Position numbers and translations under genes: made by a program. Shown in pieces: positions 1 through 36,090 of a DNA stretch of 38,950 nt; the first letter of the stretch is position 1; every line of letters starts with the position of its first letter. Source of the DNA: Protoeuglena noctilucae (lineage: Eukaryota); NCBI GenBank assembly GCA_958009085.1, contig OY253692.1, forward strand, positions 62,001 to 100,950. Reading direction: 5' to 3'. The notes below the pieces were generated by a model that was not told where the DNA came from, did no database searches, and was given only the letters and a program-made list of their open reading frames with translations.

Positions 1-3000
1 TTATTAAAAAAATAAAAAAAATCTCTAAAACCTGTTCCTACTGGAATTAAGTGACCAAGAATGACATTTTCTTTTAATCCTTTTAAGAAATCGGTTTTTT
101 TCTCGATTGCAGCTTTCGCTAAAATCCGTGTCGTTTCTTGAAAACTGGCTGCCGAAATAAAACTTTTTGTTTCTAACGAAGCTTTTGTTATTCCTAGTAA
201 AACCGGTTCATACCTTGCAGGAGAACTTTCGGTTCCTGCATTAATTAGTTCAATTGTTTCAAGATTTATCAATTCACCCGGTAATAAACCAGTTTGGGCT
301 CCATCAATAATTCGAACTTTAGAAGTCATCTGCCGAATAATAATCTCTAAATGCTTATCTGCAATGCTAACTCCCTGAGTTTGATAGACTTGTTGAACAC
401 TATCAACTAAAAATTGTTGAGTTGTTTGAATACTTAAACGAACCGCTTTTTCAAAAGACATTTTTCTAATAAAGTTTTGATACAATTTTTCTAATTTTAT
501 AGGAACACTATTTACAATAGGTTCACCAAATTTAGAAGAACGCGCTTCAAAAAATTCTTCAATTTTAGGAATACCTTGAACGATATCCCCACTTTGTAAT
601 CGTTTATAAAAAAGTGTTACTAATAAATTTTCTTTTTTTACTAGATTATTATGAAATACATGAAAAATAGATCTTGAAGAAAATAAACACGGTTGTCCTT
701 TTCTTAAAACCAGTAAAAGTTTCCCGTTGTTTTCTCTAATAGAAAGGATTTGACCAGATACAGAAAAAGTATAGTTTTTCAAAATTTTTTGTTCTGTTCT
801 AAAAAAATTAGTTAGTAAAGTAAAAATAGCTTTTTGGTCCAAACCTTCCCCTATTAAATTAATAGAATTAACATTAAAACAGGCAAAATCTGATCGAGCC
901 AGTACTAATTTAGAAGAAGTATTTTTTCGTTCTATATTTTTTTCAAAAAAAGGAAAAGAATTCTGTGAAACATCAAAAACTTCACCTTCTGTAATTCCCA
1001 AATGTTGTCGTTTCGCAAAAATTTGATTTTTTGTTAACTGTTTCAAATGGTCTAGTTTAAAAATAACTTGTTGTTTTTTTTTGCAGATTATTTTTTGTAA
1101 AGTCTTATGTAATGGGTAGATATAAACTAATCGAAAATGTAATGAAAGAAAACCAGATGTCTTCCAATAAGATCCTAGCAAGGTTTCTTGATCCCTTTTT
1201 TGCAGTAAAGCCTCGGGAATTTGTTTTATAAAAAAGGTGCAAGAACTCCCTATTGAATTGGCTTTCTTATTTAGTATTAAACTTGAAAAAATAGAATTAT
1301 AAATAAAAATTTGTTCTTTTTGTACAGTGGTTTGAATTCGAGCACACTGTGGATTTGTTATTAATTCATGAAAAATAGTTTTATAATTTTTAGTAAAATA
1401 CAAATGTTCTTTAGTTCTTAAGAGATTATTTAAATTTTTTTGTGGACAAAAAAAAGTTTTTTGATGGTTTAGGTTTTCAATTACTCGACCCTCAATTTTT
1501 TTAAAATTTCGATTTGAAGAAGTAAAAAAATGTCTTTTAATAATATAAATTGTATTTTTTTCTAAAAAGTTAAATTTTGGAACTTCGTTTCCAATAGAAG
1601 AATTTTGTTTTTGTAAAGTTTTTAACCAAAGAGTATTTTTTTGAGAAATAGAATAATTATCTAAATGTAAAGATATTTTTGAAAAAATATTTTTTATTTT
1701 AGACTCATTTATTTTTAAATCCTTATCTGATCTTTGTTCAACTTCAGCCGAAATTTGATTCTCATTAAGCTGATAATTTTTCCAAAATTCAATGAAACTT
1801 AAGTTTCGTTTTACCTGATGTAAACTAGTAAAATTTGATTCCCAAAAAATATCATCAAGAATTAATTGACCTTTTTTATATATAGTATTTTTTTTATCTT
1901 TTTTCGAATAAAATTTTATCTGTTCATTTTTTGACAAATAAGGCCAAGAAGGAATAAGACTAAAAAGAAAACTATTTTTTTTTGTTTTTTCTATTTCACT
2001 ATTAGACTCTTTTTCACTAAGAGTAAAAAGAGAATTTTCTAATTTCCAATTTGCGGAAGTGGAAATATCCTCTTTACTCTGATTAGATAATCTTTGTTTT
2101 TGTGGATTAAAGAAAGAATATACTTTTAAAAAACCTTCAACAAAATTTGAATTTAAATCTAAACAACCTTGACGGTTTTGAATTACAAAAATTTTATTAT
2201 TCGAATTTAACCATTGATTAATTACAAGGAAAGGTAGAGTTGATATGTTTTTTTTCCTACTAAAATTTAAAAAAATAGGCAATCTTTCTAAATCCGAATT
2301 ATTGGAAAAAAGAAAAATGTTTTTTCTACAAAAATTTGAATCTAATAAATTTATATTTGAAATAAAAATCTCTTTGTATGAAGAAACAAATGAAATATTT
2401 TTACGATATATAGCGTTTTGATGGTTATTCGAAAAGATACTAAAAAAAGGAAAAATTTTTGAATTTTTCTTAAAAAAACTTGTTTGAAATTTGATATGGT
2501 AAATATACAAAAAACTCGCAGAATTGAACAATTCTTTTTCTAAATAAAAAGTTAAGAAAGATTTTTTTAAATCACCGAAAAACTTATACGAATTTTTTGT
2601 CCAATATATATCTACAAGATCAAAACTTAAATTTGTTGTGATTAAACCCGATTTTAAATCTTTTTCATTTTGAAAAGACGAGAAATCTTTAGGTATTTTT
2701 TTTAAAAAAGATTTCTTCTTAGAAAGATAAAAATTTATCGGTAAATAGATATAACCGGTTTTGCTACTAACTAAAAAATGTTCTGTCAATGGAGCAGATT
2801 TAAAAAGAAAATCATTAGATTTTGGATAAAATCTTTCTTGAGTTATCGAATCTTGAATATTACCTGCCAAAATCCATAAAGAACCATATTCTCTTGCGAT
2901 TTTTAAAATATCCGAATTTTTAGATTCACGAATACTAAAAGCCACGTCTTCAAAAAAAACTTGACCTTCGATGGGTGCATTGATCGATTCTTTTACTTGT

Positions 3001-4415
3001 ATTTTTTGATCGGTTTGAGTTGATATATAAGCATATTCACTTATTATTTGATTTTTTTTTACAAAATCAAAATTTTTGAAATAAAGAATAGAAAATTCTG
3101 GAAGATCAAACTCTTTAAAAATTTTACATTTTGATAAAAACTCCAAATTTTTTTCTTTATAGATTTTTCGAAAAATTTCTTTATTCTCATTTTCTTGATT
3201 CAGACTTTTTTCGTCAAAAGGTAAAATGTTTTGACTTGATTCGGAAATAGAAATAATTTTACATTTTCCTGAAGTTTTTATTAAAAAAGCAATGTTACCG
3301 TGGGTTGTTCGTATTAGTTCTCCTAAAAATTTTTCTTGATAAAAAAGAATTCCATCAAACGGAGCAATTACCTGTTCAAAAGCATCCCCAGAAAAAACAC
3401 CACCAGTATGGAATGTTCGCATGGTTAATTGTGTTCCTGGCTCACCAATAGATTGAGCAGCAATAATCCCTACCGCTTCACCTAAAGAAACCATTTGATT
3501 GTGAGCTAAACTCCAACCATAACATAATTGACAAATAGCATCTCGTGCATTACAAGTTAAGGGCGATCGAACATAGACAAAATCTCTAATGGATTCTATT
3601 TTTGTTGCTAATACACTATCAATTAATTGATTTTTTTTACCGATTTGTGGAATATCTTCGCCTAACACCCTTCCAAGAACACGATCTTTTAACGATAATA
3701 AAGTTTTTCGACCTTCTTTCATAGAACTAATTTTTAAATTTCGATCAGTTCCACAATCCAGAGAAGATATCATAATATGTTGAGCTACATCAACTAAACG
3801 TCTCGTTAAATAGCCAGAATTAGCTGTTCGCAGAGCTGTATCCACAATGCCTTTTCTTGCTCCATAACAAGAAATAACATATTCCGTCAAGGTTAAACCT
3901 TCTCTAAAATTACTCGAGATTGGATAATTTATGATTTGACCTTGAGGGTCAGACATTAAACCTCGCATTCCAACCAGTTGACGCACTTGTGATAAATTTC
4001 CCCGTGCACCAGAAAAAGCCATCATATAAACAGGATTTAACGTGTTTGTTTTTCGAAATTTATTAACTACTTCGTTTTTTAATTTTTCACTGGTAAAATT
4101 CCAAGTATCAATAATATGTTGAAAACGCTCGATATTTGTTAAATCGCCTTGATTAAATTTTTTTAATTTTTTTTGAATCTTTAGCTCGGAGTCTTTTAGA
4201 ATATCAATTTTTGTATCAGGTATTAGTAAATCATCTATACTTAAAGAAATTCCAGCTTTTGTGGCGTTATGAAAACCAATTTGTTTTAGACTTTCTAATA
4301 AATTTATGGTTTCCGTTTCTCCAAATTCTTTTAAAAACCAATTTATTAAATTTTTTAATCGATTTTTATCAAAAGACCGATTAAAAAAATGAGTTACATT
4401 TTTTTGTTTTATCAT
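1..4415 (-). CDS. rpoC2: RNA polymerase beta'' subunit (3'-partial, runs off left edge)
   Basis: Hand translation: ATG at 4415 gives MIKQKNVTHFFNRSFDKNRLKNLINWF, then NPVYMMAFSGARG, GARKGIVDTALRTANSGYLTRRLVDV and GIIAAQSIGEPGTQLTMRTFHTGG. The C-terminal KENVILGHLIPVGTG is in the same frame at about 30-75, with no stop before position 1, which explains its absence from the ORF track. Confidence 0.95.
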   Translation of the reverse strand, partial: MIKQKNVTHFFNRSFDKNRLKNLINWFLKEFGETETINLLESLKQIGFHNATKAGISLSIDDLLIPDTKIDILKDSELKIQKKLKKFNQGDLTNIERFQHIIDTWNFTSEKLKNEVVNKFRKTNTLNPVYMMAFSGARGNLSQVRQLVGMRGLMSDPQGQIINYPISSNFREGLTLTEYVISCYGARKGIVDTALRTANSGYLTRRLVDVAQHIMISSLDCGTDRNLKISSMKEGRKTLLSLKDRVLGRVLGEDIPQIGKKNQLIDSVLATKIESIRDFVYVRSPLTCNARDAICQLCYGWSLAHNQMVSLGEAVGIIAAQSIGEPGTQLTMRTFHTGGVFSGDAFEQVIAPFDGILFYQEKFLGELIRTTHGNIAFLIKTSGKCKIISISESSQNILPFDEKSLNQENENKEIFRKIYKEKNLEFLSKCKIFKEFDLPEFSILYFKNFDFVKKNQIISEYAYISTQTDQKIQVKESINAPIEGQVFFEDVAFSIRESKNSDILKIAREYGSLWILAGNIQDSITQERFYPKSNDFLFKSAPLTEHFLVSSKTGYIYLPINFYLSKKKSFLKKIPKDFSSFQNEKDLKSGLITTNLSFDLVDIYWTKNSYKFFGDLKKSFLTFYLEKELFNSASFLYIYHIKFQTSFFKKNSKIFPFFSIFSNNHQNAIYRKNISFVSSYKEIFISNINLLDSNFCRKNIFLFSNNSDLERLPIFLNFSRKKNISTLPFLVINQWLNSNNKIFVIQNRQGCLDLNSNFVEGFLKVYSFFNPQKQRLSNQSKEDISTSANWKLENSLFTLSEKESNSEIEKTKKNSFLFSLIPSWPYLSKNEQIKFYSKKDKKNTIYKKGQLILDDIFWESNFTSLHQVKRNLSFIEFWKNYQLNENQISAEVEQRSDKDLKINESKIKNIFSKISLHLDNYSISQKNTLWLKTLQKQNSSIGNEVPKFNFLEKNTIYIIKRHFFTSSNRNFKKIEGRVIENLNHQKTFFCPQKNLNNLLRTKEHLYFTKNYKTIFHELITNPQCARIQTTVQKEQIFIYNSIFSSLILNKKANSIGSSCTFFIKQIPEALLQKRDQETLLGSYWKTSGFLSLHFRLVYIYPLHKTLQKIICKKKQQVIFKLDHLKQLTKNQIFAKRQHLGITEGEVFDVSQNSFPFFEKNIERKNTSSKLVLARSDFACFNVNSINLIGEGLDQKAIFTLLTNFFRTEQKILKNYTFSVSGQILSIRENNGKLLLVLRKGQPCLFSSRSIFHVFHNNLVKKENLLVTLFYKRLQSGDIVQGIPKIEEFFEARSSKFGEPIVNSVPIKLEKLYQNFIRKMSFEKAVRLSIQTTQQFLVDSVQQVYQTQGVSIADKHLEIIIRQMTSKVRIIDGAQTGLLPGELINLETIELINAGTESSPARYEPVLLGITKASLETKSFISAASFQETTRILAKAAIEKKTDFLKGLKENVILGHLIPVGTGFRDFFYFFN

Positions 4416-6930: not shown

Positions 6931-9900
6931 TTATGGTAATCTTAAAATATCTATTTGTTTTCTAATACCTTTTTCAGTTAAAGCAAAAACTCCAATATCT
7001 AAGCATAAAGATTGTAATTCACGTACTAAGACTTTAAAGGATTCAGGTGTCCCTAAAATTAGACGAGTATTGCCAAGAATAGAATCCATAACTTGATGAC
7101 GTCCTTTCATATCATCAGATTTTACAGTTAGAAGTTCTTGTAGAGTATATGCAGCGCCAAATCCTTCTAGAGCCCAAACTTCCATTTCTCCTAAACGTTG
7201 ACCTCCGTGTTTTGAACGACCACGTAGTGGCTGTTGTGTTACTAAAGAATATGGACCAGTTGAACGGGCATGTATTTTCTCATCTACTTGATGTACTAAT
7301 TTTAAGATATATGAATAACCGACTGTTATTTGTTGATCAAAAGAATCACCAGTACGACCATCAAAAAGTTTCATTTTTCCTGGAGAAATCGGGTCAAATA
7401 ACCATTTTTGAAAGGTTATTTTTGATGTTTCATAAAGTTTTGAATAAACAATACTTCGAGAAGCCTGTGCTCCTATACTTTCATCAAAAGGTGTTATTTT
7501 ATAATTTTCATTTAAAAAATACCCAGCTAACCCTAGTAAACATTCGTAAACTTGTCCAACATTCATTCGTGAGGGAACTCCAAGTGGATTTAATACAATG
7601 TCTAAAGGTTTTCCATTTGGTAAATAGGGCATATCCGCACTTAGTAAAATTCTAGAAATAATACCTTTATTACCATGTCGACCAGCAATTTTATCTCCAA
7701 CTTGAATTCGTCTTTTTTCTACTAATAACAGTTGAACACGTTTTATTTTTACGGAGTCTAATAATAGATTTTTTGAATTGTTAATTATTTTTTTTTCATT
7801 TTTTTGTTTCAATACGATATTCGATTCTGTAACCTTGCTATCTGAAACTAATAATTCTTTGAAATTAATAGATTTTCTTTTTTCTGGTGTATTAATGATT
7901 TTCTTATTTTTTTCACCATGGCCTTGGCTCTCGCGAGCTAATACAGATACTCGATTTTCACCCTGTGTAAAAGAGTTAAAATCCAAATTGTTTTGTTTTT
8001 TTAGAGCATGAAAATTCTTTTTTATTCTTATAAATTCATTATTCAGTTTTTCTTTTTCAGGTAGAAAAGAAATGGGCTCTTTTCCAGTCAAAACTTTTTC
8101 CTCATTTGTTTGAACTAATAAAGGTTTTTTTCTTTTCGAAATAAGTAAATTACCATCATTAGTTTGCCTTGCAAAACTGCTAGATTTTTCTTCAAAAACT
8201 TTTTCAAAACATTTTCCTTCGTGGTCAAAAATTCGAACCGTTACAATACGACCCGACACTCCTTTTGGAATTCGTAAAGAACTATCTTTGATATTTCTAA
8301 CATCTTTACCAACAATATCATAAAGTAAACGTTCATGAGGTGATAATGGTTTACGATTAATTGGTGTAATTTTCCCTACAAGAATATCCCCTTCAGTGAC
8401 CCAGGAACCTAATTTGACAATTCCTTGGTTATCTAATAAAGTCTTGCTTTTAATAGAAATTTCCGGAATATCTTTTGTTATTTTCTCAGAACCAAAACGA
8501 GTATCTTTCACTTCAATTTCATATTTTTCCACATGTAAAGAAGTAAATACATCTTCCTGAACTAATCTTTCACTAATAACAATAGCATCTTCAAAATTAT
8601 AGCCTTCCCAAGGTAAATAACCTAACAATAAATTTTTACCTAACGCTAACTCACCACCAAAACTTGCAGCTCCATCGGCTAAAACATCGCCGGTTTCCAC
8701 CCATTGACCTTCTAATACAAGTGGTTTTTCTTTTACGCAGGTATCCTGGTTAGTTCTTGCCAAGTTTTGTAACTTATACGTTATAATCTTCAGCTTATAA
8801 TTATCTCCCAAATTAAAGCCATGAAGATAATTAGGAGTATTCATCGTAGTTACAGATTGATTTTGATTAAAATTTTGAGCAAATTCTTTTAGATTGTCGT
8901 TTTCTTTTGCACAAAAAGAATTGTTAAAGACCTTTTTCGTCGTAGAATTCAAATTAAATCCAAAAAGCAAGTTTTGATTTTTAAGTACTGAATACCGTAT
9001 TTGACTAGAAAATAAATATTTTATAAATTTACGTTTATTTTTTTTTTCACACTTAGTAATATTAACGTAAATTTCTTTTTTTTTTAAAGATTTTCTTTTT
9101 TTTTCAGGTGAACGGTTAGTTCCTGTGCTAACTAATAGAGAAAAAATTAAAGTATTCTTAGTCCAAAAATAATTGAATTTTTTTATATTTTGATTATTCT
9201 TTTTTGCAATTAATTTTTTCGAACTGTTGAAGTAATCCAATTTTTTACCTCTAGAAATTATAGGTTTCAGCGAAATTTGGTTTTGATTATTTAAATCTTC
9301 TTTGGTTTCGGTACTTATTCGTAATGGCTTCTGAAATTTTGATCCAACCAAACTTAAAACTTTAATTTTTTCAGAACTAACAAATAAAACATAACCACTA
9401 TGCTTCGCATTTATGGTATGACCTGAATCTGAAACTACTCTTCCTTCGTAACCAGTTCCTACAAAAGGTCTTTCAGTTTTCATTAAAGGTACTGCTTGTC
9501 GCTGCATATTGGAGCCCATAAGTGCTCTATTCGCATCATCATGTTCTAAAAACGGAATTAGAGATGTTGCGACTGAAATCATTTGTAACGATGACAAAGA
9601 AAAAAAGTTTATTTTATTCGAGTTAAAATTTACAAAATTTTTATTAAATCTTACAGGGATAGAATTACGAGGTAAAAAGTTTAAAAAGTCTTTATCAATA
9701 TCTGCGGGAGCAGTAAAAAAAATTTCTTCTTGATCTGCGGTCATATAATAAATTTTTTCTTGAATTTGACCTTTATAAACTTTAACAAAAGGTGTTTCTA
9801 TAAAACCATTTGAATTAATATTGGCATAAGATGTCGGGGAATTAACTAAACCAGCATTTTGACCTTCAGGTGTTTCGATTGGACAAATTCTTCCATAATG

Positions 9901-11193
9901 AGTAGGATGAATACTACGAATAACCATTCCAGCAGTTTCTCGACTAACACCGGAAGGTCCTAAAGATGTAAAACGTCGTTTGTGGGTAATTTCTGCTAAT
10001 GGATTTGTTTGGTCCAAAAATTGAGATAATTGGCTAGATCCAAAAAATTCACGTAATGCGGAATTCATTGGCTTTGTTGTAATCAAATAAGATAAAGAAG
10101 AATAAATATTTGGTCTTTTTAACCGATCAATTATGATTTTTTCAAAACGTGTTAAACCTATAGAAAATTGATTTTGAATTAATTCTGATGAGGAACGAAC
10201 TCTGCGATTTTTTAAATCATCTATATCATCTAGTAGTTTATTTCCTTCAAAAACTTTTGCAAGAAAATCAATTATTTTAAAAATGTCTTCTGCAGTTACA
10301 ACTCTTGTATCTAAAGAAATAGACAAATTAAATTTTTGATTTAAGTTTCTTCTTCCTAAAATTCCAAGATCATAAGTTTTTGGATTTTGGAATTTACGAA
10401 AAATAAATTTACGACCCATTTCAGGAGTTATATCCAAAAGATCCCGTTTTGAATGTGTAATCCCATATAAAGAAATTAATGCTAAATTTTCTAAAGAATC
10501 AAATTTGTTTTTGAAAAAAACTTTTTTATTTGAATTTCCTTCCAACTCATGAAATTTTGTTAGCTCATATCCTTTCATAATGGCATCATGAAAAAAATCC
10601 TTTTTTTCCAATCGCTGAGTAATATTAGAAATATTCATACCCATGGCTTGAAGTAATAAAAAAATAGGTATTTTTGGCGTTCTTTTCATTCTTAAATAAG
10701 GAATTTTTTCGTTGTCAATCTCAAACCTCAACCAAGTACCTTTTTGGGAAATTAAATCTGCATAGACAGTTTTATCACCTTTTCGATCGAGAGATTGGAC
10801 AAAATAAATTCCAGGACTTCGAATCATTTGATTAATGATTACTCTAGGAGATCCGTTTAGAACGAAATGCCCACGTTTGTTCATTAGTGGTAGAGTTCCT
10901 AGTAATATCCATTGAAAATGAGAGATTCCTGTTTTTTTATTTATTAATTGAGCAGGAAGATATAATTTTCCCGAATAACTGATGCCAGTTGTAATAGCTA
11001 ATTTTTCATCAACTTCAGCAGGTGTTATTTTATAATATTCAGGATACAATACTAAGGTTAAATTTGTTTCTTTCGTAAAAATTTGAGATTTAGACTTTAT
11101 TTCATTAATTAATCCATATTTTAAAAAGTTTTGAAAATTCGAACGTTGAATTTCAATAAAATCCGGAACAAAAAAATTTTTTATTTTTTTCAT
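6931..11193 (-). CDS. rpoB: RNA polymerase beta subunit with two K/N-rich insertions
   Basis: 1420-aa ORF with HYGRICPIETPEGQNAG, DDANRALMGSNMQRQAVP, GDKIAGRHGNKG and GGQRLGEMEVWALE. Confidence 0.99.
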   Translation of the reverse strand: MKKIKNFFVPDFIEIQRSNFQNFLKYGLINEIKSKSQIFTKETNLTLVLYPEYYKITPAEVDEKLAITTGISYSGKLYLPAQLINKKTGISHFQWILLGTLPLMNKRGHFVLNGSPRVIINQMIRSPGIYFVQSLDRKGDKTVYADLISQKGTWLRFEIDNEKIPYLRMKRTPKIPIFLLLQAMGMNISNITQRLEKKDFFHDAIMKGYELTKFHELEGNSNKKVFFKNKFDSLENLALISLYGITHSKRDLLDITPEMGRKFIFRKFQNPKTYDLGILGRRNLNQKFNLSISLDTRVVTAEDIFKIIDFLAKVFEGNKLLDDIDDLKNRRVRSSSELIQNQFSIGLTRFEKIIIDRLKRPNIYSSLSYLITTKPMNSALREFFGSSQLSQFLDQTNPLAEITHKRRFTSLGPSGVSRETAGMVIRSIHPTHYGRICPIETPEGQNAGLVNSPTSYANINSNGFIETPFVKVYKGQIQEKIYYMTADQEEIFFTAPADIDKDFLNFLPRNSIPVRFNKNFVNFNSNKINFFSLSSLQMISVATSLIPFLEHDDANRALMGSNMQRQAVPLMKTERPFVGTGYEGRVVSDSGHTINAKHSGYVLFVSSEKIKVLSLVGSKFQKPLRISTETKEDLNNQNQISLKPIISRGKKLDYFNSSKKLIAKKNNQNIKKFNYFWTKNTLIFSLLVSTGTNRSPEKKRKSLKKKEIYVNITKCEKKNKRKFIKYLFSSQIRYSVLKNQNLLFGFNLNSTTKKVFNNSFCAKENDNLKEFAQNFNQNQSVTTMNTPNYLHGFNLGDNYKLKIITYKLQNLARTNQDTCVKEKPLVLEGQWVETGDVLADGAASFGGELALGKNLLLGYLPWEGYNFEDAIVISERLVQEDVFTSLHVEKYEIEVKDTRFGSEKITKDIPEISIKSKTLLDNQGIVKLGSWVTEGDILVGKITPINRKPLSPHERLLYDIVGKDVRNIKDSSLRIPKGVSGRIVTVRIFDHEGKCFEKVFEEKSSSFARQTNDGNLLISKRKKPLLVQTNEEKVLTGKEPISFLPEKEKLNNEFIRIKKNFHALKKQNNLDFNSFTQGENRVSVLARESQGHGEKNKKIINTPEKRKSINFKELLVSDSKVTESNIVLKQKNEKKIINNSKNLLLDSVKIKRVQLLLVEKRRIQVGDKIAGRHGNKGIISRILLSADMPYLPNGKPLDIVLNPLGVPSRMNVGQVYECLLGLAGYFLNENYKITPFDESIGAQASRSIVYSKLYETSKITFQKWLFDPISPGKMKLFDGRTGDSFDQQITVGYSYILKLVHQVDEKIHARSTGPYSLVTQQPLRGRSKHGGQRLGEMEVWALEGFGAAYTLQELLTVKSDDMKGRHQVMDSILGNTRLILGTPESFKVLVRELQSLCLDIGVFALTEKGIRKQIDILRLP

Positions 11194-11885: not shown

Positions 11886-14352
<2,467 letters not shown>

Positions 14353-19472: not shown

Positions 19473-19988
19473 TTAATTACTTTGCGAATTTCTACCTGTC
19501 ATTTTTAACCAATTTTGAGCTTCAATATAATTTGTAGGAGCAAGTCTAATAGCTTCATTCCAGTAATCCGCTGCTTTATCAAAAAGAATCTTTGCAATTT
19601 CCATTTGATTATTTTCGATAGCTTGTTCACCTCTATAATGATAAATAACAGCTATATTATTTAAAGCTTGTGGTAATGACGGATTTCTTTCCAAAGCTTG
19701 ATAATAATATTCTAATGCACGACCATGTTCACCATTACTTGTATGTATCAAACCTATATTATATAAGATATAACTACGATCATAAGCATCAAGCTCTAAT
19801 CGAAGTGCTTCGTAATAATTTTGCAAAGCTTCGGCATATTCACCTTCGGATTGTGCCGACATTCCATCTCGATAATAACTAAAAGCTTGTTTTTCTCGTT
19901 TTGTAGTCGGTAATACATTTAATAAAATATCAGCTACAACGGTAAAAGTTTTATCAATAAAATTATCATTTCTTTGCGATCTAGGCAT
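19473..19988 (-). CDS. ycf3: Photosystem I assembly TPR protein Ycf3 (171 aa)
   Basis: [46 protein letters not shown]. Start moved to the conserved ATG at 19988 because the ORF-track start overlaps trnI. Confidence 0.97.
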
Positions 19989-20061
19989 TTTTTGTATCCT
20001 TTCTTTTCTTTTAAAAAATATTCTGCAAAAAAGAGTAAAAAAATATTGGCTTTTATTATTT

Positions 20062-20134
20062 TGCATTCAGCAGGAATTGAACCCGCGTAATACCAATTAT
20101 GAGTTGGGTGCCTAAACCACTCGGCCATGAATGC
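20062..20134 (-). tRNA. trnI-CAU: tRNA-Ile(CAU), lysidine-type Ile2
   Basis: Minus strand GCATTCATGGCCGAGTGG..CCCAACTCATAATTGG..TGAATGCA, which is the pattern of plastid trnI-CAU rather than trnM or trnfM. Confidence 0.88.
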
Positions 20135-20372
20135 AATTTTTGTAAAAGTCTAAGCCTTTTGCTTTTTTAAAATTATATTTTTGCTTCTATTTTGTAAAGA
20201 TAAAAACTTTAATATTTTAATACAATTGTAACAAAAAAATTAAAAACTAGCTATCATTTTTCTTTTAAACTTTTTTATTAAAAGCTTTAACCAGAAAATG
20301 TAACGATTATAATTACACATTAAATGGATGCTTTTTTATACCTAACATTTATAGGTCTTTAAAAAAGCGAAT

Positions 20373-20634
20373 TGGAACTGGTGGGAATTGAACCCACGTC
20401 CAGAATTCAATAATTTCTTTTTTTTTTTTCACAATTATTTAGCTGTTATAAACCTAACAGCAGGAATTGAAAAAAGCCAACTAACTTGTACTTAATTAAA
20501 TGGAAAAGACTACAACATTAAACAGCAACAGCTGTTTGTCGAGAAAACTTTAAAATATTATTACCATTTTTTTGTTTTTTCTGATTGATTAAAAGAAATT
20601 ATGACACAGATTCTGTCGATACCAAATCAGTCCC
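20373..20634 (-). ncRNA. ssrA: Transfer-messenger RNA (tmRNA)
   Basis: 5' end GGGACTGATTTGGTATCGAC and 3' end GGACGTGGGTTCAATTCCCACCAGTTCCA; acceptor GGGACTG/CAGTTCC with G3.U70 and discriminator A; helix 2 CAGAAT/ATTCTG plus 12-bp ATAATTTCTTTT/AAAAGAAATTAT; internal tag frame. Confidence 0.93.
20518..20565 (-). other. tmRNA tag reading frame (A)GNNILKFSRQTAVAV*
   Basis: GGT AAT AAT ATT TTA AAG TTT TCT CGA CAA ACA GCT GTT GCT GTT TAA, with the xNNI..F N-terminus and apolar C-terminus typical of cyanobacterial/plastid tags. Confidence 0.85.
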
Positions 20635-20732: not shown

Positions 20733-20793
20733 TTTTAGATTGCAAAAAATTCTTGTAATGTTAGCCACTACAAGAATTTTTTGAAATCTAAAA
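20733..20793. terminator. Long 3' stem-loop of rbcL
   Basis: TTTTAGATTGCAAAAAATTCTTGTA...TACAAGAATTTTTTGAAATCTAAAA, about 25-bp inverted repeat. Confidence 0.75.
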
Positions 20794-20851: not shown

Positions 20852-22279
20852 TTATAATTTGTCAACAGTATCAAATTCAAATTTAATTTCTTTCCAAACT
20901 TCACAAGCTGCTGCAAGTTCAGGACTCCATTGACAAGCTGCACGGATTACATCCCCACCTTCACGTGCTAAATCGCGACCTTCGTTACGAGCTTGTGTAC
21001 AAGCTTCTAACGCTACACGGTTAGCTGCTGCACCAGGAGCATTACCCCAAGGGTGACCTAAAGTACCACCACCAAATTGTAAACAAGAATCGTCACCGAA
21101 AATTTCTACTAATGCTGGCATATGCCATACGTGAATACCACCAGAAGCTACTGGCATTACACCTGGAAGAGATGCCCAATCTTGTGTAAAGTAAATACCA
21201 CGGTTACGGTCTTTTTCTACATAAGCATCACGCATTAAGTCTACGAAACCTAAAGTAATTTCACGTTCACCCTCTAGTTTACCTACAACTGTACCAGAGT
21301 GTAAATGGTCACCACCAGATAAACGTAAAGCTTTTGCTAATACACGGAAGTGCATACCATGATTACGTTGACGGTCAATTACTGCGTGCATCGCACGGTG
21401 GATGTGTAAAAGTAAACCATGATCACGACAGTATTTAGCTAGTGAAGTATTTGCTGTAAAACCACCTGTTAAGTAGTCATGCATAATAATAGGTACACCT
21501 AAATCACGAGCACATTCTGCACGTTTTAACATTTCTTCACAAGTACTTGCTGTTGCATTTAAATAGTGACCTTTTACTTCACCAGTTTCTGCTTGAGATT
21601 TGTAAATTGCTTCAGCTACGAATAAGAAACGATCGCGCCAGCGCATAAATGGTTGTGAGTTTACGTTTTCATCATCTTTTGTGAAGTCTAAACCACCACG
21701 TAAACATTCATATACTGCACGACCATAGTTTTTAGCAGATAAACCTAATTTTGGTTTGATCGTACAACCTAAAAGGGCACGACCGTATTTATTAAGTTTA
21801 TCACGTTCTACTTGGATACCGTGTGGAGCACCTTGGAATGTCTTACAGTAAGCAGCAGAAATACGAAGATCTTCTAAACGAAGAGCACGAAGAGCTTTGA
21901 AACCAAATACGTTACCTACGATCGAAGTAAATAAGTTAGTAACGGAACCTTCTTCAAATAAATCTAACGGGTAAGCTACGTATGCAATATATTGATCATC
22001 TTCACCAGGTACTGGTTCGATATCGTAACAACGACCTTTATAACGATCTAAAGATGTTAAACCGTCTGTCCACACTGTAGTCCACGTACCTGTAGAAGAT
22101 TCTGCAGCTACTGCAGCGCCTGCTTCTTCAGGTGGTACACCAGGTTGAGGTGTCATACGGAATGCAGCTAAAATGTCTGTATCAGATGGTTGGTAATCTG
22201 GTGTGTAATATGTAAGACGGTAGTCTTTTACACCAGCTTTAAATCCTGCACTTGATCTCGTTTCTGTTTGAGGAGCCAT
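20852..22279 (-). CDS. rbcL: RuBisCO large subunit (form IB)
   Basis: 475-aa [21 protein letters not shown] and [20 protein letters not shown]. Confidence 0.99.
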
Positions 22280-22940
22280 ATATTTTTTCCTGTTAATGAT
22301 CTCAAATCATCTAATCTACTCGAATAAATTGTTTTTTTTTAATCTTTCTTTTTTAAGAATATCATTCTAAAAAATTAATTAAAAATAAAAACTATATACA
22401 TTTTATTATACAAAAAAACAAATCTAAAAAAAACTATTTCTAGTTTTTTTCTAATTATTATTTGTTCTTGCATTTTTCTTTTTTTTTGGTTAACTTATGC
22501 TATAAGCACAATTTAAATTTATTGAAAAAAAACATTTAGTTATCAAAAAAACACATTATCGTTTTTAGTAAACTGAAAGCTGTTTTTCAGCTGAACTTTT
22601 TTAAAAATGAAGTTTATATTAGAGCAAAAACGTTTTGGTCTAAAAATCTATTTCATTAAAAAAAGTGATGGTCTCGAAGGGCGAAATGCGATCTTGTCCT
22701 GTAGAAAATAAAAACTGTAGTGACAGAAAAAACGAGTCCAAAAAACTAAAAAAAATTAAAAACAAACTAGTGCTCTTAGCCTTTAGACGTGTGAATTTTT
22801 TTTTTAATATCATGTAAAAGAAAGAAAGTTTCATTAAAGTTTTAGCTAAGTAAAAGTAAAATAAACACAATTTTCTTTTTTTTTAGTTGAAAAAAAATCA
22901 TGAGATTTTTTAAACTTCTTCTTTCTAAAAAATGAAATAA

Positions 22941-32094: not shown

Positions 32095-35000
32095 ATGAGT
32101 ACTTTAAAAAAAAAAAATCAAAATTTACAAAAAAAGACGCAGATATATCAATTGAAAGATATTCGACAGTCTTTTAAAACTAAAATATATTCAAGTTTTC
32201 AACAGTTTTTTGATTGGAAGTCTGTGGTTGCATTAATTCCAATTATTTTTAGTTTTTATCCTTATTCTTCAAAACAAAGCTTTAAAAATTATATTGGAAC
32301 CAATTTAACTAGTTTTACAGATAATAAAAATATAAAATTCCCTATAGAAATATACAAATATAAAAAATTATTTTTTTATGATTCGTTAGTTCAAAAAAAT
32401 CTAAAAAATGAGATAAATACAGAAAAAAATAAATATCAGTTTGATATGTTGTTAGATGTTTTACTATTTAACAAAACTTTTGTATTTGATAATTCCACAT
32501 TGCCTTTAAAAATAGGCTCCTTTTTAAACAATACAAAAGAAAAAGATCAAACTAATAAAACGATATTCCAACTTCGAACTTTAAAACAGTTAAATTTTTC
32601 ACAAAAAAAAACCAATAGAACAATTTTACAAAAAAAATTAAGTATTGCCAATCTACAAAATTTAGATAGTTTTTCTTTATATTATTTCTTAAAAAAACAA
32701 AATATTAAACTCAAATACACTCTTCAAAGTATTGAAGATAAAGAAAAAAGTTTGATTTTAAATTCAGGAAATTTTTATTGGAATCTCTTTTTTCAAAATA
32801 GTTTTATGAAAAGTTTCGATTCAACCATTGCTTTCCCTTCGGGAGCAAAAAAAAATAAAGACGAAACGTTTCCTTTACTGAAACAATCAATACAAGACTT
32901 TTTTTTTACCTCAAAACCAAAAATCATAGAAAAAACTATTTTAACGAAAACTCCAAAAGTTGAAATAAAATCGTCCAGTAAAAACTTGAACTATGTTTTA
33001 AAGTTAAACGAAGAAAATAATGATATCATTTTTCAAAATCCAAAACTTTTATCAAAAATCATTTATTTAATAATTTCTGAAAATGAATTACAAGATAGTA
33101 GTTTTGATTTTTTTGGTGGAACGATAAAAAAACGAAAAAAATTTATCTCATTGCCTCCTTTTTTAAATGTTAATGAGAATGTTTATATCCAAGATCTAAA
33201 ATATACTTATTCACCAAATACAAAAATTTCTAAAGATTGGGAATTTTTAAAAGCTTCCTCAAAAGAAGAAAATTCAAAAAATTCAACAATTATTCGTGAA
33301 TTGAAAAACCGATTTGGAGATCAATTATTTTATAGTACTAGACAGTATTCAAAACCGACTACAAAAACTATTGTAGAAATTTCAGTCGATAGTAATTCTA
33401 TAAAGGAATTCAATACTAAATTTTTTACTAATTATGATCCAAAATTAACGATAAGTATCGATATTCCATTTTATTGGGATTGTTTTACAAATGACAATAC
33501 GAAAAAAAATATTATTAATTTTTTAGACATAAATAAAAAATTCATTACAAATGAAAAAGAAAAGATTTTTTTTCTAACAAATCAAAATTTACTCCCATTT
33601 TCAAATCAAGAACTCATTAATGATTTTTATCAATATTATCCAAATCTTTTCAAATCCTCAGATACAAGTAACATTATTGTAAAAAATAAAGAATATTTAC
33701 GTGAACTTTTTTTTATTTCTTTTACACAAATTAGCATTTGTTTTTATTTGTTTTACTTATTACGTAAAGTGTACAAATCGTATCAATACGAACTAGGTTT
33801 TTATTTATTGGAGTTTGCATCACGTTTAAATTTATATGATGAAGATATAAAAAGTATCATTAATGAAGTTTATGAAAATGGAAATATTAGAATTTTTAGG
33901 AAATTTAATGTTTCATTTTTAGCTCTCGGAGGTATGATAGAGTTACTTCCTAAATTTAGTGAAACTGTTTGGTTTTTAAAAAATCAATGTCGTCCTTCGA
34001 AAAATGGGGCATTAATTCCAAAAGCAATTTTGCTAGTAGGTCCTCCAGGGACAGGTAAAACTTTATTAGTCAAAACTATTGGCGCGGAAGCAAAAGTACC
34101 TGTTTTAATTCAATCCGGAAATACTATTTTAGAAGACTCGGAGGGGATCAGTAAGCTACAAGAAGCGTTTCAAAAAGCTCGCGAAATGGCTCCTTGTGTT
34201 TTATTTATTGATGAAATGGATACCATTGGATCAAAACGAATCGAACTAGAGTTAACTAATATTCAAGAACAGTCGGTAGTAAAAAACCAACTAAAACTCA
34301 AATTTGAGGATTTAGAAACTACGGTCTTAAAAAATAAAAAAAATGAAAATGTTTTTTCAAACCCGATAAATTCAGGACAACAAGTAAATGCCTTAACTCA
34401 ATTATTAGTAGAATTAGACGGAATTGAAAAAAGGCAAGGATTTGTAGTTTTTGGAGCAACTAATCGACGTGAAACATTGGATCCGGCTTTAATACGTCCC
34501 GGTCGTTTTAATGAGGTCATAGAAATAGGATTACCTGATTTAAAAAAACGAATAGAAATTTTAAAAATTTATACAAAAAAATTAGGATTTGTAGAAAAAA
34601 TCGATTGGAATACTTATGGGAAATTAACTTTAAATTATAGCGCGGCAGATTTAGCTACTATTGTCAATCGTTCCGCAATACAGTCTATATTGAATAATCA
34701 AAAACATTCAAACGTCTCTCTCTATAAAGCTTTAAAGAACCAAAAATCTGATGATTTATCTTTTTCTATTAATAAATTAAATAAAACTTTAAATAAAAAA
34801 AATTCGCTATCTGACCAATTTTTCCACCTTAATCCATGGGTACTTCAAATGACTTATTATGAAATTGGTCATTCTTTATTTAAACAAAAGTTAATTGATT
34901 TTTTAAATTCACAAAATAAAACTAATTTTAACCAATTAACCCCTGAAAACGTTAATCTTTCGTTAGAGAAAAGATTAGATCAACGATCAGAAACTAGTTT

Positions 35001-36090
35001 TGCTAATGTTTTTTTTTATTTTCTAGATGATCTTACAAAAACTACAAATAAAATAGATTTATATCGATCTTTAAAATATTCAAATCAAGAAAATATAATT
35101 AATGAAATAAAAAATAACATCGAAACTTTTAAACCTAATTCAGCTGATTTATTCTTTTCCATTATAATTTTGTTGGCGGGGAAAGCTAGTGAATTTTTAT
35201 TTTTATATTCAATTTCTAAAGAGGATAGTAATCTTTCCCTAAAAAAAGATCCTACTTCTCTTCAAAAGGATTACCCAAATACGTTTGGAAATATACAGGG
35301 AAAATTTGCTTTCGAGTCCCAACCAATTTCTTCTTTAGAAGAAGCTACTGAATCGTCGTCTCAAACTATGGAATCTGAAAATCCACTAACATCTTCTATG
35401 GAAACTGTTGATGAACTATCTGTTCAAAAGACTAAAGAATTTTCTAAAGAAAATCTTGAAAATAGTACTCAAGAAATACCAAAAATTGATCAGGATAAAA
35501 ACGATTTTTGTTTTGATGTAAGAATACAACAGATCTTACAAAACTCGAAGAGAGTTACAACTATCGGTGATTTAGACCTTTATAAAGCGAATCTTCTCGG
35601 CGATATTTATGTAAAAATTTTAAAACTAAATAACATTGATATTTGGGAGGACAATTCTGCTTTTTCTTCGAAAACTCAAACAAAAAATCTTAATCTTAAT
35701 TCTTCTTTTGAAATGAAGAAAGAGCAACTTTTAAACTTTGAAAACAAACAAATATGGAATACAAAAAGTTTATGGCTAAATGTTTTAGGAAATTCTTTTC
35801 AAAACCTTGAAAACAAAAAATGGTCACGTCTACATCTCTCAAATCCAGAAAATACTATTTTTAATGAAGAAATTATATTTTCTGACCTTTTTAAAACATT
35901 ACAACAAAATTCAAAAGTTAAGATTGAAAACCAAATAGAATTAAAAAGTTTACTAAAAAATTCTACTGATGTAAGTTTACAAAATATTTTATATTTAGCT
36001 TTTTCGTATACATTTTTATTTTTGGAAGATTCTCGAAATGAACTTGATTTTGAAGTTTATAATTTTCTAAAAAAAGAAAAATTTCTTTAA
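32095..36090 (+). CDS. ftsH: Plastid-encoded FtsH/Ycf2-like AAA ATPase
   Basis: 1331 aa; LLVGPPGTGKT, FIDEMD, LTQLLVELDG and GATNRRETLDPALIRPGRF (second region of homology); long divergent N-terminus. Confidence 0.9.
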   Translation: MSTLKKKNQNLQKKTQIYQLKDIRQSFKTKIYSSFQQFFDWKSVVALIPIIFSFYPYSSKQSFKNYIGTNLTSFTDNKNIKFPIEIYKYKKLFFYDSLVQKNLKNEINTEKNKYQFDMLLDVLLFNKTFVFDNSTLPLKIGSFLNNTKEKDQTNKTIFQLRTLKQLNFSQKKTNRTILQKKLSIANLQNLDSFSLYYFLKKQNIKLKYTLQSIEDKEKSLILNSGNFYWNLFFQNSFMKSFDSTIAFPSGAKKNKDETFPLLKQSIQDFFFTSKPKIIEKTILTKTPKVEIKSSSKNLNYVLKLNEENNDIIFQNPKLLSKIIYLIISENELQDSSFDFFGGTIKKRKKFISLPPFLNVNENVYIQDLKYTYSPNTKISKDWEFLKASSKEENSKNSTIIRELKNRFGDQLFYSTRQYSKPTTKTIVEISVDSNSIKEFNTKFFTNYDPKLTISIDIPFYWDCFTNDNTKKNIINFLDINKKFITNEKEKIFFLTNQNLLPFSNQELINDFYQYYPNLFKSSDTSNIIVKNKEYLRELFFISFTQISICFYLFYLLRKVYKSYQYELGFYLLEFASRLNLYDEDIKSIINEVYENGNIRIFRKFNVSFLALGGMIELLPKFSETVWFLKNQCRPSKNGALIPKAILLVGPPGTGKTLLVKTIGAEAKVPVLIQSGNTILEDSEGISKLQEAFQKAREMAPCVLFIDEMDTIGSKRIELELTNIQEQSVVKNQLKLKFEDLETTVLKNKKNENVFSNPINSGQQVNALTQLLVELDGIEKRQGFVVFGATNRRETLDPALIRPGRFNEVIEIGLPDLKKRIEILKIYTKKLGFVEKIDWNTYGKLTLNYSAADLATIVNRSAIQSILNNQKHSNVSLYKALKNQKSDDLSFSINKLNKTLNKKNSLSDQFFHLNPWVLQMTYYEIGHSLFKQKLIDFLNSQNKTNFNQLTPENVNLSLEKRLDQRSETSFANVFFYFLDDLTKTTNKIDLYRSLKYSNQENIINEIKNNIETFKPNSADLFFSIIILLAGKASEFLFLYSISKEDSNLSLKKDPTSLQKDYPNTFGNIQGKFAFESQPISSLEEATESSSQTMESENPLTSSMETVDELSVQKTKEFSKENLENSTQEIPKIDQDKNDFCFDVRIQQILQNSKRVTTIGDLDLYKANLLGDIYVKILKLNNIDIWEDNSAFSSKTQTKNLNLNSSFEMKKEQLLNFENKQIWNTKSLWLNVLGNSFQNLENKKWSRLHLSNPENTIFNEEIIFSDLFKTLQQNSKVKIENQIELKSLLKNSTDVSLQNILYLAFSYTFLFLEDSRNELDFEVYNFLKKEKFL

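Follow-up and report, generated by a model that had tools for sequence, protein, structure and literature searches.

The window analysed here, a stretch of 38,950 nucleotides of plastid DNA, carries a one-piece tmRNA gene (ssrA) at positions 20373-20634 on the minus strand, which measures 262 nt from G1 to the discriminator base A73 and does not encode the terminal CCA. Our reading is that this is a plastid ssrA of the reduced pedinophyte type and that it is putatively functional, to which we assign a probability of roughly 93%. The identification as ssrA rests on four counts, the match to the covariance model, the predicted fold, the homology of the tag and the conserved gene order, and all four agree with the call made in the first-pass annotation of this DNA.

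A search of both strands of the window with the Rfam tmRNA model RF00023, a check that the first-pass annotation had proposed, gave a match at 20372-20634 on the minus strand with a score of 52.6 bits (gathering threshold 47) and an E value of 4.7e-18, covering the full model (positions 1-374). The score exceeds the threshold by only 5.6 bits, and most of the score comes from the tRNA-like domain; the tRNA-like ends are aligned with high posterior probability, and the middle with low posterior probability and many deletions. Minimum free energy (MFE) folding, in which no tmRNA model is involved, recovers the 7-bp acceptor stem, helix 2 and the T arm. The folding energy is -62.3 kcal/mol compared with a mean of -44.8 for shuffled sequences (z = -3.68); of 200 shuffled sequences, 1 was equally stable. 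The structural features of the gene and its nearest neighbors are listed in Table 1.

Table 1. Features of the ssrA gene and its surroundings, in window coordinates.
Feature	Position	Strand	Description	Basis
rbcL	20852-22279	-	217 nt upstream of ssrA	Pfam RuBisCO_large, E 4.5e-134
Inverted repeat	20733-20793		28-nt arms, 93% complementary, 5-nt loop; between rbcL stop and ssrA	
Acceptor stem, 5' strand	20628-20634	-	GGGACUG, carries G3 of G3.U70	Sequence and MFE fold
D-loop analogue	20616-20627	-	AUUUGGUAUCGA, unpaired	High-posterior alignment to Rfam consensus GAucuGGaUUCGAC
Helix 2, 5' strand	20591-20615	-	6 + 3 + 11 bp	MFE fold
Linker at bacterial PK1 position	20566-20590	-	A-rich, single-stranded, 25 nt, AAUCAAUCAGAAAAAACAAAAAAAU	Fold
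Tag frame	20518-20565	-	GNNILKFSRQTAVAV*; resume codon GGU 20563-20565, stop UAA 20518-20520	
Helix-5-like hairpin	20513-20541	-	Over last tag codons, stop codon in internal loop	Fold
Hairpin in 3' body	20442-20461	-	7 bp, GCUGUUA-GGUUUA-UAACAGC, conserved	Fold
Helix 2, 3' strand	20401-20421	-		MFE fold
T arm	20381-20397	-	GUGGG-UUCAAUU-CCCAC, preceded by GAC	RF00023 alignment and fold
Acceptor stem, 3' strand, and discriminator	20373-20380	-	CAGUUCC (20374-20380) and A (20373)	Fold
tRNA(cat), probably trnI(cau)	20061-20135	-	236 nt downstream of ssrA	

The acceptor stem with its G3.U70 pair, the discriminator A, the D-loop mimic, the T arm and helix 2 all lie at the minus-strand places at which they had been described before. 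The T loop is of the GUUCRANYC type, and the D-loop analogue has no D stem. Helix 2 opens with CAGAAU/AUUCUG and continues in a second segment that can be drawn either as a 12-bp register, AUAAUUUCUUUU/AAAAGAAAUUAU, or as the 3 + 11 bp with one bulge of the MFE fold, which are two registers of the same helix. The bases directly 3' of the discriminator A on the minus strand are AUU, as expected from the earlier statement that CCA is not encoded, and the CCA would therefore have to be added post-transcriptionally. PK1 is important for function in the E. coli tmRNA. At the corresponding place the linker of the window RNA cannot pair, and most of the PK1 positions of the model are deleted in the Rfam alignment; the folding tools used do not handle pseudoknots, and the remaining pseudoknots, PK2 to PK4, could not be demonstrated with them.

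The internal tag frame with its stop codon, which had also been pointed out on the minus strand, consists of 15 codons without a start codon (GGU AAU AAU AUU UUA AAG UUU UCU CGA CAA ACA GCU GUU GCU GUU UAA) and encodes a peptide with the hydrophobic C-terminal end ...AGNNILKFSRQTAVAV. For comparison, tags were translated by hand from the mRNA-like block of the alignment in Fig. S4 of Turmel et al. (2015; PMC4524492) and compared by eye. The tags so obtained are ANNILPFNRKTAVAV in Mesostigma, ANNILLLTRQAAVAA in Nephroselmis astigmatica, ANQILPFSRRVAVAA in N. olivacea, DNNILNWNRKVAVAA in Picocystis, where the resume codon is GAC (Asp), GNNILPFSRQATAVA in Marsupiomonas, GNNILSFNRVAAVAA in Pedinomonas minor and GNNILSFNRLAIAVA in P. 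tuberculata. The window tag is homologous to all seven of these green-plastid tags and identical to none of them. According to the hand translation, a Gly resume codon (GGC) is present in all three pedinophyte rows of the figure and in none of the four other rows, and the window tag likewise resumes with Gly (GGU) followed by NNIL, as in the pedinophytes. The Mesostigma tag, which the first-pass annotation had given as very similar, indeed agrees with that of the window at 11 of 15 positions. Of the rows in Fig. S4, those of the two Nephroselmis species are the only ones with a templated CCA.

To compare the folds we used a second gene, found in a pattern scan of metagenome data for the tag. 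Among the 39 loci that matched the pattern, 38 lie in unrelated DNA and match by chance, and the comparative fold is limited to two sequences because the remaining locus (L007) is the only real ssrA. It is a 356-nt gene at 2094-2449 on the minus strand of a 10,132-base metagenome contig, its tag and T arm are those of the Mesostigma viride row of Fig. S4, and the contig is from an environmental Mesostigma-like plastid. In the consensus fold of these two sequences, 9 of 38 pairs are kept by changes on both sides. Such compensatory changes are seen in the acceptor stem, where pair 4:69 is A-U in the window and G-C in L007, in one pair of the T stem (U-A and C-G, respectively) and in 3 of the 7 pairs of the 3'-body hairpin (alignment columns 273-292). 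The inner 7-bp stem of the helix-5-like hairpin is also kept (columns 127-144). The G3.U70 pair is invariant in both sequences and, as judged by eye, in six rows of Fig. S4, with the 5' row of Marsupiomonas left out.

The detection program ARAGORN, another check proposed at the outset, gave a divided answer, in that it called no tmRNA on the wild-type sequence at default or mildly relaxed thresholds but called this very gene once a single codon was altered. Permuted calls that appeared at -ps80 and -ps70 were implausible and were discarded. The variant test comprised seven in-memory runs, the wild type and six altered sequences. No call was returned for the wild type, for A4G alone, for A4G + U69C (by which G4-C69 is restored), for the sequence with CCA supplied, or for A4G + U69C + CCA. 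Changing the resume codon from GGT to GCT yielded a standard tmRNA at 20634-20373 with the tag at positions 70-117, and adding A4G + U69C to this change gave an identical call. Thus, the two runs with a call were the two GGT>GCT carriers, with the same ends as the predicted gene. We conclude that the RNA structure satisfies the tmRNA model of ARAGORN and that the program misses the wild-type gene because the resume codon is Gly, which is the sole obstacle. By the same token, ARAGORN finds the ssrA of L007 because its resume codon is Ala (GCU). The description of the gene as hidden therefore applies to ARAGORN, but not to annotation in general, since the plastomes annotated with MFannot in 2025 list ssrA.

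The genes on either side of ssrA, rbcL upstream and tRNA(cat) downstream, both on the minus strand, are the ones that had been named earlier. In the Pedinophyceae, Nephroselmis and Picocystis, ssrA adjoins rbcL on the same strand (PMC4524492), and the gene in the window obeys this rule. The inverted repeat between the two genes is likely to be a stem-loop in the 3' UTR that stabilizes the rbcL mRNA. With this repeat in place, either an ssrA promoter has to fit into the remaining 100 nt or so, or the RNA is processed from read-through transcripts. A promoter and terminator scan gave 5 promoter-like sites compared with 4.9 expected, and 0 terminators.

Some further observations concern this neighborhood. 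On the strand opposite to tRNA(cat), the Rfam family RF04354 ('Plastid-ycf2 5'UTR RNA') matches 20061-20134 (+) with 82.2 bits (gathering threshold 65.7) and outscores the tRNA model, which reaches 59.8 bits at tRNA(cat). With no ycf2 nearby, the match resembles trnI(cau) seen in antisense more than it does a ycf2 leader; read in this way, it lends indirect support to the assignment of tRNA(cat) as trnI(cau). The ycf3-like TPR open reading frame at 19473-20066 (-) measures 197 amino acids from its first ATG and overlaps tRNA(cat) by 6 nt, and translation probably begins at an ATG farther downstream. Between the divergently oriented rbcL and atpB, an open reading frame of 76 amino acids with a TTG start at 22640-22870 (-) has no Pfam match and is probably spurious.

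The order of genes in the window is rpoC2, rpoC1, rpoB, psbC, psbD, petA, chlI, ycf3, rbcL, atpB, atpE, rps4 and accD, followed by a cysA-like ABC gene, psbE, a long ftsH and tilS; 12 tRNA genes are also present and the GC content is 29%. The petA protein is 80% identical over its full length to that of Marsupiomonas sp. NIES 1824, which is the best named match once the top-scoring row, a 510-amino-acid Musa record with 66% identity, is set aside. In a quick single-gene tree of petA with 118 rows, from which the Musa record (P0001) and a truncated copy of the window protein (P0003) were dropped, the window sits on a long branch within a clade of 12 rows (SH-aLRT 99), of which the only named member is Marsupiomonas. 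Gene order in the window is collinear with the linear map published for Marsupiomonadaceae sp. Cadiz (PLoS Genet 2025, S4 Fig; PMC12574857), and the two share the slot ycf3-trnI(cau)-ssrA-rbcL, in which the map annotates ssrA and labels the tRNA gene trnI(cat). The window also carries trnR(ccg) and trnS(gga), and the combination of these two with trnI(cau) is found in one of the eight pedinophyte plastomes in S2 Table of the same paper, that of Protoeuglena noctilucae, whose tRNA set is the only one of the eight to match that of the window. The Protoeuglena plastome is reported there to contain ssrA and to have the lowest GC content of the set, 32.39%. From the petA grouping, the gene order and the tRNA set we therefore place the plastome in or near the Marsupiomonadaceae, and it is possibly that of Protoeuglena or a close relative.

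Other features of the plastome were noted in passing. The Rfam family IsrR, the antisense RNA of isiA, matches 12671-12857 (+) with 191.9 bits, inside and antisense to the psbC open reading frame at 11886-13271 (-); this match most likely reflects CP43/IsiA coding homology picked up by a near-structureless model and not a real antisense RNA. The rpoB gene at 6931-11193 (-) encodes 1420 amino acids, rpoC2 at 3-4415 (-) encodes more than 1471 and runs off the window, and ftsH at 32095-36090 (+) encodes 1331, of which residues 645-742 match one AAA domain, the only one. All three far exceed their conserved domains in length, which points to large insertions.

Sequences from RNA libraries were also considered. 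The stretch, or part of it, is present in 20 of the 24 listed runs, of which 7 are labelled RNA, and at least some of the runs are metagenomes. Four RNA runs from three studies were inspected over a stretch of 901 nt. All of the sequences are contigs from assemblies, from which neither the strand nor the level nor the true ends of an RNA can be read, and some DNA may be present in RNA libraries. Run X18 (study P8) has one contig at 20393-20634 (record 9). Run X19 (study P9) has one contig inside the gene, at 20425-20605, and another that fits only 20870-20899 in rbcL and then continues into unlike sequence. Run X12 (study P4) has several contigs inside the gene, one of which ends at 20634 (record 7). 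In run X8, also from study P4, a single contig of 15,284 nt (record 12) spans the whole stretch including the plastid neighbors; it could represent DNA or a long precursor, and the window DNA may even derive from it. Thus, the body of ssrA is present in RNA-library contigs of all three studies, and contigs of two of them (X12, X18) stop exactly at 20634, the predicted G1, with no loose end, which we take as a weak hint of the 5' end of the RNA. No contig of X12, X18 or X19 reaches the 3' end of ssrA. Contigs of X18 and X19 do not cover the spacers beside ssrA or the trnI side, although uncovered parts are not usable as evidence, and the same is true of contig depth, which in word counts for X12 is about 1e4 to 1e5 inside ssrA versus 256 and 64.8 for the flanking contigs.

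We also considered the possibility that the gene is a decaying relic, still recognizable and perhaps transcribed but inactive through the loss of SmpB or because the RNA is poor in pseudoknots. Such a fate would fit the missing PK1 and the short, A/U-rich body (263 nt against the 374 positions of the model), as well as the repeated loss of ssrA among green algae, as recorded for Chlorokybus, for the Resultomonadaceae and for the trebouxiophyceans examined, from which the gene is apparently absent (PMC4524492). However, the tag still has an intact and conserved reading frame, both G3.U70 and A73 have been retained, and the change at acceptor pair 4:69 has been compensated and not broken. Furthermore, relatives with ssrA keep SmpB where data exist (PMC12574857), and the reduction of the PK1 region appears to be old and stable, because gaps in this region are visible by eye in Fig. 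S4 for P. minor, P. tuberculata and Picocystis as well. We therefore consider decay to be improbable, with a functional gene by far the better reading.

Two other explanations deserve hardly any weight. One is that a tmRNA is only mimicked, either by a tRNA-Ala-like sequence that is degenerate or has arisen by chance, or by structure in the rbcL 3' UTR; the Rfam score is near its threshold and dominated by the tRNA-like ends, and a large rbcL 3' stem-loop is located nearby. Yet the E value was obtained for the whole window, the two tRNA halves lie 230 nt apart and enclose a 15-codon frame homologous to published tags, the gene is the positional orthologue of an annotated ssrA, and the inverted repeat falls outside the gene. 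As far as sequence evidence can decide, tag homology and synteny refute this idea. The other is that a bacterial or cyanobacterial tmRNA gene was misassembled into a plastid contig, a concern that arises from the metagenomic origin of some runs with this DNA and to which we give a similarly negligible chance. The GC content of ssrA, 0.30, equals that of the surrounding plastome, 0.29, single contigs such as record 12 of X8 join ssrA to its plastid neighbors, and its location and its Gly-resume tag are both features specific to the plastids of pedinophytes. The plastid gene thus remains our preferred reading.

Trans-translation as established in bacteria serves as the template for the mechanism that we propose for this plastid. 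Transcription would start at a promoter of the gene itself or continue through from rbcL, and RNase P, with the tRNA-like domain as its substrate, would presumably generate the 5' end at G1. The 3' end would be trimmed behind the discriminator A and the CCA put on by a plastid CCA-adding enzyme, after which the plastid alanyl-tRNA synthetase could load alanine by way of G3.U70 and A73. Accompanied by an SmpB that is encoded in the nucleus and targeted to the plastid, the RNA would then occupy the vacant A site of a ribosome that has stalled on a plastid mRNA that is broken or lacks a stop codon, and donate its alanine. The ribosome would move to the internal frame at GGU, append GNNILKFSRQTAVAV, terminate at UAA and be released, leaving a product with the tag A-GNNILKFSRQTAVAV, the hydrophobic ...AVAV tail of which may mark it for proteolysis. 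Processing, alanylation, the partnership with SmpB, tagging and degradation are all steps that we infer by analogy. Nuclear SmpB co-occurs with plastid ssrA in the Pedinomonadales and the Marsupiomonadaceae, and both are missing in the Resultomonadaceae (PMC12574857). The proposed retention of plastid trans-translation with a nucleus-encoded SmpB matches what has been published for the nearest relatives.

Much of this picture is already in print: genes of this kind, the linkage to rbcL, an alignment with Gly resume codons, the occurrence in this family at this exact position, and the SmpB partner. The gene, the linkage and the alignment were described in GBE in 2015 (PMC4524492), and ssrA in the Marsupiomonadaceae and its co-occurrence with SmpB in PLoS Genet in 2025 (PMC12574857). 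The first-pass annotation regarded ssrA in green plastids as confined to a few taxa such as Mesostigma and Nephroselmis, which is outdated. Turmel et al. (2015) list Mesostigma, two Nephroselmis species including N. astigmatica, Picocystis and three Pedinophyceae, with the gene of Mesostigma viride attributed to Gueneau de Novoa & Williams (2004), and two further Marsupiomonadaceae were added in 2025 (PMC12574857). Its suggestion to look for annotations in related plastomes proved rewarding, as the 2025 paper (Table 1 and S4 Fig) annotates ssrA in both sp. Cadiz and Protoeuglena. Because ssrA is already annotated in this lineage, the novelty of the call is gone, but the call itself is intact. 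What we add are two small points, the reason why ARAGORN overlooks the gene and a weak hint from contigs that the RNA starts at G1.

In agreement with the earlier publications, the gene suggests that plastid ribosome rescue by trans-translation persists in a marine pedinophyte lineage. ARAGORN is widely used, and its blind spot concerns annotators of green plastomes and of environmental plastid MAGs. In the main text of two recent environmental-plastome papers that cover pedinophyte-related genomes, ssrA or tmRNA occurs 0 times each. A more far-reaching hypothesis is that ssrA genes with non-Ala resume codons evade ARAGORN and are systematically unannotated, that trans-translation in the Chlorophyta is considerably wider than the approximately 10 recorded taxa, and that the PK1-less, 262-nt form with a Gly resume codon is a distinct minimal variant of tmRNA. 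We think that this combination is doubtful as a whole. If true, it would bear on green plastomes in general and on the environmental plastid genomes that were published by the hundreds in 2025-2026, including genes with Asp (GAC) resume codons of the Picocystis type, and the tag of a distinct minimal tmRNA variant would be read by a plastid protease.

Among the published genes, the ssrA of Marsupiomonas sp. NIES-1824 shares with that of the window the Gly resume codon, the tag core GNNIL-FSRQ, the T stem GUGGG/CCCAC and the lack of an encoded CCA. The two tags are identical at 9 of 15 positions and differ in the tail, which is ATAVA in Marsupiomonas and TAVAV in the window, and the acceptor 3' strand of Marsupiomonas, CAGCUCC, implies G-C at 4:69 in place of the A-U in the window. 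Marsupiomonadaceae sp. Cadiz resembles the window in that ssrA occupies the same slot on the rbcL strand. In the Pedinomonadales (P. minor and Chlorochytridion/Pedinomonas tuberculata), ssrA is likewise adjacent to rbcL on the same strand, with a Gly resume codon (GGC), a GNNIL start, a short 5' body without PK1 and no encoded CCA, but the tags differ from that of the window, and P. minor lacks trnI(cau) and tilS, both of which are present in the window. The Mesostigma-like gene of L007, from a streptophyte, has 73% column identity with the window gene in a pairwise alignment, the same tRNA-like domain and the same TAVAV tail, yet it carries extra sequence at the PK1 and post-tag regions. The one-piece tmRNA of bacteria (E. 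coli SsrA, RF00023) has in common with the window RNA the tRNA-Ala-like domain with G3.U70, the long helix 2, an internal tag frame that lacks a start codon, and a tag that ends in hydrophobic residues. The window RNA is about 100 nt shorter, has an A-rich linker in place of PK1, does not encode CCA and resumes at Gly, and, unlike in bacteria, the SmpB partner of a plastid tmRNA must be imported from the cytosol.
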